Shown: positions 33,889-52,800, counted from the stretch's first letter. The stretch is 64,000 nucleotides of DNA from Candidatus Omnitrophota bacterium (GCA_021735655.1 JAIPGM010000001.1:1-64000); one strand, 5' to 3'. Notes: a model not told the origin generated them from the letters alone. Made by a program: numbers and translations.

Positions 33889-34902
33889 ATGAGTAGCAGA
33901 AAAAAAGTATTGATTTTATTGGTAGTTTTAGTAAGTTTGTTTTTAGTTTCATCTAGCCAGGCTTATGCTGGAATATGGGATAAGTTTAGTCGCTGGGAGA
34001 CTTTTAACGGACTTTCTAAATTTAAAAACGATTCAACTTCACCTTTTAAGAAGTTGACTGAGACCAATAAAAAGTTAGATTCAACCAATCCATCTTTTAG
34101 TAAGTTGGCCAGCATGAGTTTTAAATTATCCGAAAGCCTTAAGCCTTCTTTTGCTAAGATGGCCCTAATTAATGGCGGATTGAGCCATGGCCTAAGACCA
34201 TCGTTTTCTAAACTAGAGTCTTTAAAGGGTTTAGATTCAGGCATAAAGCCATCTTTCGCAAAGATGGATACGATTACTTCTGGATTAGCCGGAACAGTTA
34301 AACCGTCCTTTGTAAAACTAGCAACTCTTAATACTAACTTAGCTGGTAGTCTAAAACCATCATTTGAGAGGATGGGTGAGGTAAATATTAATAATAAATT
34401 AAATCCTCAGCTAGTTAAGTTAACCACAATAAATAAGAACATAACTGGAGGTTTAAATTCTAACTTTGAGCGTTTAGGTAATGTTAATAGTAAAGTGGCA
34501 CCTTCTTTGAGTCCAGCCTTTAGCACTCTAGCTAGCATTAGTCCTAAGCTTTCATCCATTTTGAGTCCGAAGTTACAGGCTTTAACTAAGCATAAGACAT
34601 CTTTAGTTGAAATTGGCAAGACTCATGCTCTCTATACCAAACCTAAGGGTTTAAAAACCATAAGGCTAACAGCTAAGAAACCAATTTCCTTCGCCCCAAT
34701 AGCTACTTCGCCGGAACTTTCTCGGTTGTCAATTAGTCCTGAGATTTTGCAGGGTCTATCGGCTACAGATGTTGCTGAATTAATTACTAGAGACTTACAT
34801 CTTATTCAGCCTATTTCTGGTTCTAAACAATTGTTACCGCCAATTCAAATTGGACCTCAGAACGTATCTTTGATGTCGATTTTGTCTATCGAAATTAAAT
34901 AG
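33889..34902 (+). CDS. secreted 18-aa-repeat protein (LKPSFxKL repeat family, paralogue 1)
   Basis: 337 aa. Signal peptide. More than 8 degenerate repeats centred on KPSF(A/S/E)K(L/M). C-terminal DLHLIQP...PQNVSLMSILSIEIK domain shared with the 45339 protein. Confidence 0.6.
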   Translation: MSSRKKVLILLVVLVSLFLVSSSQAYAGIWDKFSRWETFNGLSKFKNDSTSPFKKLTETNKKLDSTNPSFSKLASMSFKLSESLKPSFAKMALINGGLSHGLRPSFSKLESLKGLDSGIKPSFAKMDTITSGLAGTVKPSFVKLATLNTNLAGSLKPSFERMGEVNINNKLNPQLVKLTTINKNITGGLNSNFERLGNVNSKVAPSLSPAFSTLASISPKLSSILSPKLQALTKHKTSLVEIGKTHALYTKPKGLKTIRLTAKKPISFAPIATSPELSRLSISPEILQGLSATDVAELITRDLHLIQPISGSKQLLPPIQIGPQNVSLMSILSIEIK

Positions 34903-34926
34903 CGATTTAAAGTAAAAGTTAAATTT

Positions 34927-34963
34927 CCGGGTTGTCTAAATTTAGACAACCCGGTTTTTTTTT
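34927..34963 (+). terminator. rho-independent terminator followed directly by a TATAAT box
   Basis: Perfect 12-bp stem CCGGGTTGTCTA / TAGACAACCCGG with loop AATT, then T9. TATAAT at 34966-34971 sits 10 nt before ATG 34981. Confidence 0.7.
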
Positions 34964-34980
34964 GATATAATCAACTTACC

Positions 34981-50825: not shown

Positions 50826-50826
50826 C

Positions 50827-50945
50827 AAATGAAAAGGTTCTCTGGTAAAACAAGAACAAAGCCACGGAGGAGTAGAAAGTTATGGCCGAGGCTTTAACAA
50901 TTTGGTAGTAGAATGGGAGGCGAGAATACGTCTCCGTTTTTTTTT
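50827..50945 (+). promoter_or_regulatory. structured leader with intrinsic terminator; possible degenerate GEMM-like element
   Basis: Contains AAAGG, then GUUCU...AGAAC hairpin, then AAAGCCACGGAGG and AUGGCCGAGGCUUUAAC. These are weak echoes of the GEMM blocks. Terminator GGAGGC-GAGAAUAC-GUCUCC followed by U9 (50916-50945), 28 nt before ATG 50974. Confidence 0.35.
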
Positions 50946-50973
50946 GGCTGAGGTTGAGAGAAAGGAGTAAACC

Positions 50974-52800
50974 ATGAGACAGACAAAGACAAATTCAGAT
51001 GCTCGAAAAGTTAAAAAAACTATTGGTCTGTTTTTATGCTTCAGTTTGCTTTATTTTATTTTTCCGGTAAGCTCTCTGGCTCAGATTGGTGGAAGGGCCG
51101 GAAGTATGACTACGGCACCTATCATTAATAACGCAAAACCAAAACCTGCAGGAACTCTTTCTCCTGCTGCTGCAGCCGCCTTAGCGGATAAGCAAAAGAC
51201 GGCATCTGCAACAACACCTACACAAAAAGTTGCAACAATAAAAAAGCAACCAAAATTGCAAGTTAATAGTGGCCAGTTGCCTCCAACTAATCCTGCGGCT
51301 AAAGTTGCAACTGGGAAAGTTATACCTAAATTAATACCGCCCACCCCGAGTAAAACAGCAACAGCTGGTACTGGGGCAGGTACTTTAACTCCTGGCGTTA
51401 AGAAGGTCGGTGCTGCTGCTGCGTCTGCGCCAACCGGTGGAGACACTGGTGGTTTGTTAGCTTTAGTGGACAAGCCAGTAGCTGCTGGCGATAAACAAAA
51501 AGGGTTTGCTGATCCTACTAAAGTTACTAAGGGTTCTGAAGGGGCAGATTCGCCGGATTCAAAGTTGATTAAGGCTGCCGGAACTGATAAGTTCAAATCA
51601 GACGATGCAACGGTCGGAGCTGCTGACCCAAGCAGTACTCAGCGGCTTGCTGATGCAGCCAAGAGAACCGAACAGCAGTTAGATAAACAACGAGCTAAAC
51701 CTCAAGATCCGCTTACTGATACAACAAAAATTGAACAGGTTGCTAAACGAGCTGAGCGGTCTTTACCGGAATCAGCTGACCCGGCATTTAGGCGTATGGT
51801 TCAGCCGCCGACTAAATTTAGGCGTTTCGCTGATACCTCGAGGTTAACTCGTGAGATGAGCAAGCGGTTATCTGGTGAGATTAAGCCAACCTTTTCACGT
51901 TTGACCAATATTTCTGATGGAATGGTTAGGCTTTCACCAAAGTTAATTAATGCTGAATTAAGTCCAAAGTTAACTAAGTTAGCTACAGTTTCTAAAAATA
52001 TTGAGATTAGTTCTTTGGCTAACAAAATGCCCAATCAACTTAACAGTAAGTTTGAAAAGTTAGCCACAATATCACCGAATAAATTTAATTTTCAATCGCA
52101 GTTTAAAGGGGCAAAAATTGTTCCGCAACTAGCTAATTTAAGAGATGTATCTTTTCAAGTTTCTCCTTCAATTTCTGAGGTAAAGAGCTATCAGATTAGT
52201 TCGGCTCTAAAGGGGCTTAATCGTTTTTTACCTAAATCAGAGGTTAATTTTAGCTTACCTGACACCAATAGAATTGCTTTAACGGTAAAGTCGCCCTTGG
52301 CAAGTTTGTCTGATCTTTCACGGATAGCAGGATTAAAGTCTACCGGAAGTCAGGCTTTAAGTAAGGCAAAAGAGCTTAAGCGATCTTTTGCTAATCTAGC
52401 TTCGGTGTCTAAAAATAGCGATAAAATCCTACTTGAAGGACTAGCTCCAATGAAGGCTTCGAGCTTGCGAATTGTCAGCCAGCAGCAATCCCAGCATAAT
52501 CTTACGCAACTAAAGGTTCCTAAATTTGGTTTTATCCGATTATTGCATGGTGATAATGGTAGTAGGCTTCCGGCTATACAGGCGCTTGAGCTTTCCGGGA
52601 TTAATGTTCAGGATTTGATGATTGTTCAGGATCAGATAGAGCAAGACACATCATTACTGATAGCTGGAAATACGCAAATACTTAACTCTCCGACTTTAAG
52701 CATTCTTGATGCTGATGGCCAATTGGGGAATACATTCAATTCAATTTTACTTAGTAGTGATGTAATCACTCGACAATTGATTATCCGTAGCGTGCGATAA
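50974..52800 (+). CDS. secreted Ala/Pro/Thr/Lys-rich protein with KP(S/T)F-type repeats (LKPSFxKL family, paralogue 3)
   Basis: 608 aa. Signal peptide. Low-complexity N-terminal half. C-terminal half contains IKPTFSRLTNIS / LSPKLTKLATVS repeat units related to the other two paralogues. Confidence 0.55.
   Translation: MRQTKTNSDARKVKKTIGLFLCFSLLYFIFPVSSLAQIGGRAGSMTTAPIINNAKPKPAGTLSPAAAAALADKQKTASATTPTQKVATIKKQPKLQVNSGQLPPTNPAAKVATGKVIPKLIPPTPSKTATAGTGAGTLTPGVKKVGAAAASAPTGGDTGGLLALVDKPVAAGDKQKGFADPTKVTKGSEGADSPDSKLIKAAGTDKFKSDDATVGAADPSSTQRLADAAKRTEQQLDKQRAKPQDPLTDTTKIEQVAKRAERSLPESADPAFRRMVQPPTKFRRFADTSRLTREMSKRLSGEIKPTFSRLTNISDGMVRLSPKLINAELSPKLTKLATVSKNIEISSLANKMPNQLNSKFEKLATISPNKFNFQSQFKGAKIVPQLANLRDVSFQVSPSISEVKSYQISSALKGLNRFLPKSEVNFSLPDTNRIALTVKSPLASLSDLSRIAGLKSTGSQALSKAKELKRSFANLASVSKNSDKILLEGLAPMKASSLRIVSQQQSQHNLTQLKVPKFGFIRLLHGDNGSRLPAIQALELSGINVQDLMIVQDQIEQDTSLLIAGNTQILNSPTLSILDADGQLGNTFNSILLSSDVITRQLIIRSVR

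Follow-up and report, generated by a model that had tools for sequence, protein, structure and literature searches.

Omnitrophota are uncultured, ultra-small and probably predatory or parasitic bacteria, and what their genomes reveal about attachment to a host comes mainly from the Tad pilus loci and giant genes. Giant genes are widespread in the phylum, for which a host-dependent lifestyle has been described (Seymour et al. 2023, PMC10066038), and a Tad-like or type II secretion system (T2SS)-like locus upstream of these genes has already been reported and is phylum-wide (West-Roberts et al. 2023, bioRxiv 10.1101/2023.11.21.568195). Both studies proposed that the giant genes and the pilus or secretion locus preceding them serve attachment or predation (PMC10066038; 10.1101/2023.11.21.568195). 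The remaining proteins of the locus are described there merely as 'less well conserved', and most genes in the Tad/giant loci lack a known function.

The window analysed here, a stretch of 64,000 nucleotides from a Candidatus Omnitrophota bacterium (GCA_021735655.1 JAIPGM010000001.1:1-64000), holds a Tad/Flp pilus locus of this kind. Like the described loci, it carries a SurA-like peptidyl-prolyl isomerase (Rotamase_2, 25857-26756), RcpC, a secretin, GspE-type ATPases and two GspF/TadB-C genes (TadB and TadC), together with a TadG-like gene and many small genes with class III signal peptides, followed by a giant open reading frame (ORF). About 10 pilin-like genes were recognised in the locus, some of them with class III signal peptides. 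The pilZ genes reported downstream of giant genes (10.1101/2023.11.21.568195; PMC10066038) belong to a region outside the window. Two genes of the locus, A and B, encode exported proteins that are built from a repeat of 16-18 residues, here called the LKPSF repeat, and are defined by diagnostic N- and C-terminal modules. Our analysis suggested that these proteins form a new, lineage-restricted family within a known kind of system, and that the B-type genes belong to a cyclic di-GMP (c-di-GMP) riboswitch regulon. In the searchable literature we found neither the LKPSF-repeat family nor c-di-GMP riboswitches of Omnitrophota giant-gene loci described.

The LKPSF repeat and its conservation

An earlier note on this DNA had proposed a family of three secreted proteins with arrays of repeats of about 18 residues. 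All three ORFs (A, B and C in Table 1) were found, and the N-termini of their products, read from the sequence, begin with a basic n-region, continue into a hydrophobic core and close with an AxA-like end (AYA/G, AEA/G and SLAQ/I, respectively). In-register parsing gave 11 repeat units in A and 14 in B, the latter in agreement with the copy number first estimated, and the period of the B array was exactly 18 residues in 12 of its 14 units. The unit of A and B can be written as L-K/N-P-S-F-x-R/K-L-A-x-L-S/N-x-x-L-S-G-x, with 16-18 residues. A sequence logo of 58 units of exactly 18 residues from 15 family members reproduced the consensus proposed before; from position 1 to position 18 it reads L (66%), K/N/S, P (84%), S/A, F/L, x, R/K (95%), L/M, A/G, N/S/T, L/V/I, S/N, x at both positions 13 and 14, L/M/F, S, G (66%) and x. 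Across the family, units of 18 aa (58 cases) occur beside units of 16 aa (33) and 17 aa (13). Because all of this length variation falls in positions 13-18, the segment is probably a loop. The strict motif P-[SAT]-[FL]-x-[KR]-[LMI]-x-x-[LIVM] was found at 11 sites in B, at 6 in A and at a single one in C, and it was absent from the other 17,495 residues of the plus-strand ORFs of the window (0.08 occurrences expected from shuffles).

The repeat genes contain no tandem repeat at the DNA level, so the repetition is old and has been kept in the protein sequence. When B was compared with its closest homolog (P0001), orthologous units were 70% identical, or 65% at the variable positions, whereas paralogous units within B were 38% identical, or 20% at the variable positions. 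Each unit is therefore individually constrained, and the array is old and neither recently expanded nor generic low-complexity sequence. The number of repeats varies from 10 to about 23 across the family between conserved ends. Two antisense ORFs are present in B (45428-45820 and 46067-46351), and the proposal that they merely mirror the repeats was borne out. Substitutions between B and its ortholog in a related locus (L001) numbered 113, 70 and 212 on codon positions 1, 2 and 3 of the plus frame, and this concentration on the third position indicates that the plus strand is the coding strand.

Diagnostic ends of the family proteins

In full-length members an AxA signal peptide precedes an N-terminal motif of about 15 aa; an array of 10 to about 23 repeat units comes next, and a basic linker joins it to a C-terminal domain. 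The mature N-terminal motif, G-[IMV]-[RW]-D-[KQ]-F-x-R-[FW]-x-x-F-x-G, was detected by a local hidden Markov model (HMM) in A (E 7.6e-15) and B (E 2e-11), and gave no match in C, in the giant ORF or in X and Y, two secreted proteins encoded between B and C. The C-terminal domain covers about 60 aa with the pattern ...LYRLSLxPxELKNxSxEEAAxxLQxDLHLIQP-(10-14 aa)-PQNVSLxSLLAxEAK, and its end lies 2-5 residues before the stop codon in full-length members. The conserved tail that had been noticed in two of the proteins, A and B, proved to be significant in both (Table 1) and is kept across the family. Its diagnostic pattern, placed at the extreme C-terminus, is ...L-S-x-x-P-x-x-L-x-x-[VI]-S...D-[LVI]-H-L-I-Q-P...P-Q-N-V-S-L-x-S-L-L-x-x-E. 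When all ORFs of the window and of the fetched related loci were scanned, the local HMMs of the motif and of the domain matched family members only. The C-terminal region had been put forward for examination as a sorting signal; its profile matched only A and B in the window, so that it does not appear to be a widespread signal of this kind there.

The isoelectric point was 9.6-11.6 in 8 of 9 family members measured, and cysteine is missing from A and B and occurs at most once in any member measured. A is identical to NCBI K9L86_00135, from the 341-kb contig of a Candidatus Omnitrophica metagenome-assembled genome (MAG). For B, the ATG at 45339 follows GGAGG and is a better start than the TTG at 45324.

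The third protein is a weaker relative. The N-terminal half of C is low-complexity sequence rich in Ala, Pro, Lys and Thr, and just 4-5 degenerate units were recognised, at about aa 298-369 (DNA about 51865-52080). The family was defined by 8 or more tandem units of 16-18 aa with the core [LIV]-[KNS]-P-[SA]-[FL]-x-[RK]-[LM]-A-x-[LIV]-[SN], and with this definition A and B qualify while C falls short. Comparison with the family by hhalign gave a probability of 92% (E 5e-7) over 55 columns. However, the family tail was not found in C (hhalign probability 0.2%, no HMM match), nor was the N-terminal motif with the local HMM. Because C is only weakly related and is without the tail, we do not count it as a full member; the supposed family of three consists instead of two family proteins, A and B, and a distant cousin, with signal peptides in all three.

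Occurrence of the family

No Pfam or NCBIfam family matched A, B or C at E<=0.1 beyond chance-level coiled-coil matches, and a profile search of PDB sequences with a 17-sequence alignment found nothing significant, the best match being COG4 at E 0.033. The earlier remark that no described repeat family was recognised with this unit thus stood in all of these searches, S-layer and cell-wall repeats included. An exhaustive HMMER scan of 1.84 billion cluster representatives returned 72 proteins at E<1e-3, 22 of them at E<1e-10. About 18 were true relatives (E 1.1e-171 to 5.7e-10), many of them fragments, and the remainder were unrelated repeat proteins. Three word-indexed homology searches were less informative and yielded just 4, 5 and 1 proteins, their candidate lists having been filled by words from the repeats. 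A narrow-alignment search for related loci revealed one GTDB locus (L003) and none among JGI contigs.

The family members with organism names come from Candidatus Omnitrophica/Omnitrophota MAGs, and two further members were binned as 'Hodarchaeales' (L002) and 'Planctomycetia' (L003). The former is probably mis-binned, since its giant-ORF and riboswitch neighbours are Omnitrophota-like. Taken together, these results suggest a new and lineage-restricted family. It is under-counted in protein databases, because gene callers truncate its genes or replace them with the mirror antisense ORF. In L016 (9001-10417), the annotated gene is the antisense mirror ORF (P0016, minus strand, 333 aa), and of the true repeat gene, with its 550 aa, the gene caller kept 138 aa. 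B is absent from a collection of 5.8 billion protein clusters in which A and C of the same contig are present.

c-di-GMP riboswitches of the B-type genes

Searches with Rfam revealed four c-di-GMP-I aptamers (RF01051) in the window, all at or above the gathering score. The earlier view of the region as a c-di-GMP-controlled pilus island was upheld: it is a Tad/Flp pilus locus, and one of the aptamers lies directly before B. None was detected for A or C. In the B leader, the 3' strand of P2 of the aptamer (CCGGGUU) doubles as the 5' arm of the terminator hairpin, so that aptamer and terminator exclude each other. From this arrangement we infer an ON switch, in which the ligand would prevent termination. 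In an intergenic comparison, the leaders of B and of the giant ORF were found to have in common a promoter-like box and a 54-nt block that is 93% identical.

In other loci, a c-di-GMP-I riboswitch likewise heads a B-type gene or an operon of 2-4 genes: at 2126-2216 in L001, at 2806-2959 in L002, at 8086-8177 in L003 (a GGC variant) and twice in L013. All 6 of the B-type genes with upstream sequence available, that of the window included, lie behind such a riboswitch. The variable leading genes between riboswitch and B-type gene were not significantly similar in BLAST to each other or to the gene upstream of A. As far as predicted aptamers go, it is established that one c-di-GMP riboswitch regulon comprises the B type, the pilins, X/Y and the giant gene. 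This link offers a testable regulatory logic, in which c-di-GMP would turn on an attachment programme.

c-di-GMP riboswitches commonly control adhesins and pili elsewhere, as in the case of C. difficile CD2831, CD3246 and pilA1 and V. cholerae gbpA. The LKPSF proteins resemble these in Sec export, in the riboswitch leader and in co-regulation with a pilus of the type IV class. They differ in that there is no sequence relationship, and in that the known proteins have collagen-binding, chitin-binding or sortase-anchor domains, of which the LKPSF proteins have none.

Two further observations concern c-di-GMP. A GGDEF diguanylate cyclase gene (9535-10686, minus strand) lies 16 kb upstream of the Tad locus and is a candidate source of the c-di-GMP that the four riboswitches would sense; because of this distance, and because it lies behind housekeeping genes, it is by itself no evidence of local control. 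In L003, the c-di-GMP-I-GGC riboswitch (8086-8177, plus strand) stands back-to-back with the cobalamin riboswitch (7711-7904, minus strand) of a divergent cob operon.

Two genomic settings of the family

A-type and B-type genes occupy different places. The A type is the last gene of the RcpC-secretin-ATPase operon, and the same slot is used in L004-L006 and L007-L009. Between L004/L007 and the window, identity is 89-94% for the ATPases, 83-91% for RcpC and 77-81% for the secretin, whereas the A orthologs share only 42-48% identity with A of the window, which is comparable to TadG (36-50%). A-type genes thus diverge much faster than the Tad machinery, at a rate typical of exposed components.

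The B type follows TadB/TadC, in a module of B, X, Y, C and giant gene. The order in L001 is TadC, B, X, Y, C and giant gene, with identities to the window of 91%, 60%, 51%, 35%, 27% and 48% (giant N-terminus), respectively. L015 has B, X, further genes, a C-like protein and the giant gene; L002 has a C-like protein, B and the giant gene; and in L013 and L018 a B-type gene lies beside TadB/TadC. The N-terminus of the giant ORF is 46-56% identical to the starts of the giant ORFs in L001, L002 and L015. The conserved partner of B and C is the giant ORF as much as the pilus. Only the first 80-150 residues or so of the giant ORF, a transmembrane or signal-anchor region, are well conserved, and the part of it in the window has no significant Pfam domain.

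Fold of the repeat and comparison with known repeat proteins

Structure prediction had been suggested as a means to distinguish a solenoid from a helical bundle, and it yielded both kinds of element. With 5 sequences, AlphaFold2 placed short helices over PSFxKLxxL at a predicted local distance difference test (pLDDT) score of 38.7; with 17 sequences it predicted in-register beta strands in three units (140-146, 158-165 and 177-180) at a pLDDT of 49.5, the best confidence outside the leader being found there (block-mean pLDDT 57-61). The hydrophobicity harmonics of the unit were 4.86 at 3.6 residues, 4.54 at 2.57 and 4.55 at 2.0, so that the one at 3.6 is only marginally the strongest. The spacing i, i+3, i+4, i+7 of F5, L8, A9 and L11/12 would favour one short amphipathic helix per unit with an N-cap Pro.

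Several known repeat types were compared with the LKPSF unit. A left-handed beta-helix (3 x 6 = 18) was rejected, as the hydrophobic positions have no 6-residue periodicity. Short bacterial leucine-rich repeats (LRRs; YopM/IpaH/SspH) also consist of short Leu-rich units with Pro and Asn, and they ranked first, though without significance, when the low-confidence model was compared by Foldseek. Yet their units have 20-22 aa against 16-18, and LxxLxLxxN is absent from the LKPSF unit, which has F5, L8, L11 and N12 instead. The LRR assignment was rejected because the LxxLxLxx[N/C]xL segment, typical of LRR units of 20-29 aa, is not in the logo, no Pfam LRR matched at E<=0.1, and YopM/IpaH gave Foldseek E>2. 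Curli CsgA and other functional amyloids are like the LKPSF proteins in that a signal peptide and a conserved N-terminal segment are combined with imperfect repeats, about 18-23 residues long, in which Gly and Asn/Ser have fixed places; a c-di-GMP link is a further common point. They differ from them in that the LKPSF spacing of hydrophobic residues is helix-like, that each unit has an invariant Pro, and that CsgG/CsgB-like partners are missing. Curlin-type repeats (Sx5QxGxGNxAx3Q) were rejected on the lack of a Pfam Curlin match and of CsgG/CsgE/CsgF or FapF partners among the Pfam-scanned neighbours. Cell-wall-binding and S-layer repeats (CW_binding, SLH, LysM, SPOR and others) were set aside in the absence of any Pfam/NCBIfam profile match.

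Exchangeable apolipoproteins are similar in their periodic hydrophobic face, in the Lys/Arg at its edges and in the Pro that starts each unit. Their repeats, however, have 11 or 22 residues, against 16-18 with an extra Gly break in the LKPSF proteins, for which the 3.6-residue harmonic is marginal and the AlphaFold runs conflict. Among the profile matches, P0023 is an MlaD-domain protein with about 12 tandem 18-aa repeats (Q-I-N-P-I-L-A-N-V-E-T-L-T-G-D-L-S-V) C-terminal to MlaD. Pro3 and the hydrophobic positions 1, 5, 8, 11 and 15 are common to both kinds of unit, but the similarity (E 1e-10) is limited to the repeats and the LKPSF proteins have no MlaD domain; the resemblance is probably a convergence on the same periodic helix pattern.

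Proposed role and competing explanations

We tentatively propose, at somewhat less than even confidence, that A and B are Sec-exported, lineage-specific accessory adhesins or linkers of a c-di-GMP-induced attachment apparatus formed by the Tad pilus and the giant protein. They are not pilins, since their leaders are of the Sec type and not class III/prepilin. A Flp pilin or Tad pseudopilin (TadE/F/G) was rejected as an identity for A, B or C, which have no Pfam Flp_Fap, TadE or Tad match and have leaders that end in AxA (Sec/signal peptidase I). Export, basic charge, variable length, fast evolution, restriction to a small clade, the place within the Tad/giant-gene attachment locus and, for the B type, the riboswitch regulon would, on an equally provisional view, suit an accessory adhesin or linker that is exposed more than they would a core part of the machine. 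The proteins are reminiscent of PilY1/PilC-type adhesins, which are Sec-exported non-pilins, evolve fast and are encoded beside minor pilins, as A lies just upstream of the pilin-like run. The difference is that LKPSF proteins have no beta-propeller, vWA domain or PilY1 homology, and are much smaller (320-550 aa). Under the proposed mechanism, the ligand-bound aptamer would block the terminator and B would be transcribed, so that high c-di-GMP would switch on a single attachment programme made up of the pilins, B, X/Y and the giant protein. Once the protein is exported, its conserved modules at the N- and C-terminus might dock it to the envelope, the pilus, the secretin or the giant protein, and the basic amphipathic array of variable length might contact the negatively charged surface of a host or prey, or link surface components. 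A and B would then act as an adhesin or linker, and not as a pilin or enzyme.

Several findings weigh against this proposal. Pfam, NCBIfam and PDB sequences revealed no homology to any adhesin or other characterised family, Foldseek gave no match in the PDB below E=2 (best E 2.1), and the two AlphaFold2 runs contradict each other, with helices in one and strands in the other. One ortholog, P0008, is acidic (isoelectric point 5.9). No RF01051 aptamer was found before C (E<=1) or before the A operon (E<=0.5). The L003 member (L003 and L016 are from one organism) has cobalamin, sigma-factor and PPDK genes as its neighbours, and there is no Tad or giant gene within 10 kb of it; physical coupling to the pilus is therefore not obligatory. 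A Sec signal peptide alone, finally, would lead to the periplasm, and passage across the outer membrane is assumed.

One other explanation, which we consider unlikely, is a periplasmic scaffold or spacer of the Tad machine between the inner-membrane platform (TadB/C and ATPases) and the secretin. A and B carry a Sec signal only, A-type genes hold a fixed position inside the machinery operon in three genomes, B-type genes adjoin TadB/TadC in the window, L001, L013 and L018, and canonical TadD and RcpB were not detected in the locus. TonB_C domains bind short strands by beta-augmentation. The secretin has such a domain, on which the C-terminal strand NVSLxSLL might dock. Yet a scaffold sits poorly with a family of only about 20 relatives, which the great majority of Tad loci in Omnitrophota lack even though the locus itself occurs throughout the phylum. 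The sequence of the family evolves far faster than the machinery, and its repeat number varies more than two-fold; the L003 member, moreover, is not near any Tad gene. The presence of a B- and/or C-type gene with a homologous giant-ORF N-terminus in four loci (window, L001, L002 and L015), and the near-identity of the B and giant-gene leaders in promoter and riboswitch, would agree with B and C being an escort, chaperone or tether that binds the nascent or exported giant protein or its N-terminal anchor region. We regard this as highly improbable, as A-type genes and the L003 member do not adjoin a giant gene, and giant genes are widespread in Omnitrophota whereas the LKPSF family is rare.

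The other explanations turn on the fold. A secreted effector that binds membranes or lipids, with Pro-capped cationic amphipathic helices that coat or destabilise the prey envelope or extract lipid from it in an apolipoprotein-like manner, would make use of the hydrophobic positions 1, 5, 8, 9, 11 and 15, of Lys/Arg at positions 2 and 7, and of the high isoelectric point. The strongest hydrophobicity harmonic, at 3.6 residues (power 4.86), and the helices on PSFxKLxxL in the 5-sequence AlphaFold run agree with it, as do the host-dependent lifestyle (PMC10066038) and the nearest non-family profile matches, which are helical-repeat proteins including the lipid-transport (MlaD) protein with 18-aa I-N-P-I-L-x-N-V-x-T-L-T-G-D-L-S repeats. 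These MlaD-type matches, however, are probably driven by repeats and composition and not by homology. The harmonics at 2.57 and 2.0 are nearly equal (4.54 and 4.55), a continuous helix could not stay in phase across units of 16 and 17 residues, the conserved Gly of each unit leaves helices of about 10-13 residues only, and the 17-sequence run predicts strands, so that we judge the effector to be distinctly unlikely. Those same in-register strands, with Asn/Ser-rich positions 10 and 12 and the conserved Gly17, would instead suit a self-assembling extracellular fibre or beta-solenoid of the functional-amyloid kind, in which Pro/Gly turns and Asn/Ser ladders stack and the N-terminal motif is an export or nucleation signal as in CsgA. 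c-di-GMP induction is typical of matrix fibres, and the best Foldseek matches, all non-significant, are beta-helix and short-LRR solenoids. But the hydrophobic spacing is i, i+3, i+4 and not alternating, Pfam models of LRR, beta-helix and curlin give no match, CsgG- or FapF-like amyloid secretion genes were not found in the Pfam-scanned neighbourhood, and the confidence of the model is too low to be trusted; a fibre of this kind has, in our estimate, very little chance of being right. A bolder and very doubtful combination is that the 16-18-residue unit adopts an unseen fold (a short-period solenoid or a chain of Pro-capped helices) that couples the Tad pilus or secretin to the giant protein, perhaps through TonB_C docking, and is deployed under c-di-GMP to grip or permeabilise the prey envelope. 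If true, it would stand for a new class, an attachment or effector protein gated by a riboswitch, to which nothing in studied bacteria corresponds.

Other features of the locus

The coordinates of the features are collected in Table 1.

Table 1. Features of the Tad/giant-gene locus, in positions of the window
Feature	Position	Strand	Remarks
Tad machinery upstream of A	26764-32661	+	RcpC/CpaB, secretin with TonB_C, TadZ(ParA)-TadA fusion, second T2SSE ATPase
Protein A	33889-34902	+	337 aa, A-type member: signal peptide, GIWDKFxRWxxFxG motif, 11 units, C-terminal domain
A repeat array	34033-34614	+	aa 49-242, 11 units of 16-18 aa
A C-terminal family domain	34711-34899	+	about aa 275-337, LSRLSISPE...RDLHLIQP...GPQNVSLMSILSIEIK; HMM E 7.7e-25
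Intrinsic-terminator-like hairpin after A	34927-34964	+	strong, 12-bp stem and T-run; ends the RcpC-secretin-ATPase-A unit
Promoter-like site overlapping the A terminator	34943-34971		
c-di-GMP-I riboswitch before pilin-like genes	36517-36628	+	RF01051, 38.7 bits
Run of pilin-like genes	36683-40785	+	with the TadG-like gene (40822-42324), pilin-like genes span 36683-42324
TadB and TadC (T2SSF) platform genes	43165-44895	+	directly upstream of the B transcription unit
Promoter-like site of the B transcript	45124-45153	+	TTGACT-18-TATATT with TG
c-di-GMP-I riboswitch in the B leader	45196-45283	+	RF01051, 58 bits (gathering score 35); 56 nt upstream of the B ATG
Terminator in the B leader	45269-45307	+	hairpin (45269-45302) and U-run
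Protein B	45339-46652	+	437 aa, B-type member: signal peptide, GMRDQFDRFSGFGG motif, 14 units, linker, C-terminal domain
B repeat array	45525-46286	+	aa 63-316, 14 units
B C-terminal family domain	46461-46649	+	LYRLSLNPQELKNVSGEDAAKILQKDVHLIQP...TPQNVSLISLLGIDKVQ; HMM E 3.8e-31
c-di-GMP-I riboswitch before X/Y	46782-46870	+	RF01051, 38.2 bits
X	46959-48458	+	conserved secreted protein between B and C
Y	48473-50569	+	conserved secreted protein between B and C
Promoter box before C	50796-50825	+	near-identical to that of the B transcript
Protein C	50974-52800	+	608 aa, NCBI K9L86_00245; distant relative with signal peptide
Promoter box before the giant ORF	52990-53019	+	near-identical to that of the B transcript
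c-di-GMP-I riboswitch in the giant-ORF leader	53060-53253	+	RF01051, 50.5 bits
Giant ORF	53375-64000	+	>3,540 aa, runs off the window

A Pfam/NCBIfam scan of the unknown neighbours (6-7) gave a Tad/TadG-like match (40822-42324) as the only real one. The secretin (27639-29279, plus strand) has its TonB_C domain at the C-terminus (aa 467-543, E 2.6e-13), and this domain is kept in L004, L005 and L007; short strand motifs, or peptidoglycan, might dock on it. The region 29422-32661 (plus strand) encodes the TadZ (ParA-like)-TadA (T2SSE) fusion of 722 aa and then the second T2SSE ATPase of 355 aa, which is 45% identical. The presence of two such ATPases suggests a possible extension/retraction pair.

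The gene after A (34981-36420, plus strand) encodes a 479-aa protein without a signal peptide and with a faint helix-turn-helix or transposase-like N-terminus. It has its own promoter-like site, which overlaps the A terminator. Such a gene always follows an A-type gene: the protein is 52-64% identical in L004/L007 and recurs where L013 and L018 end. A Y1_Tnp (IS200/IS605-type) transposase gene separates the TadG region from TadB in L004 (19068-19712), L007 (19919-20557), L013 (7976-8353) and L018 (5173-5718), and is missing from the window.

Unrelated secreted neighbours of the LKPSF genes all have a stretch rich in Arg immediately behind the signal peptide, of which RGFRGFFSRGQRSRSY and RRAQRRARRSQRRALRAQRK are examples. 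They include the products of 46959-48458 and 48473-50569 in the window, of 2250-2960 in L001, and of 2105-4150 and 689-1618 (minus strand) in L013. A lipobox-like YAGC is present in the proteins that begin at 32853 in the window and at 689 in L013. The Arg-rich stretch may be a shared sorting or anchoring feature.

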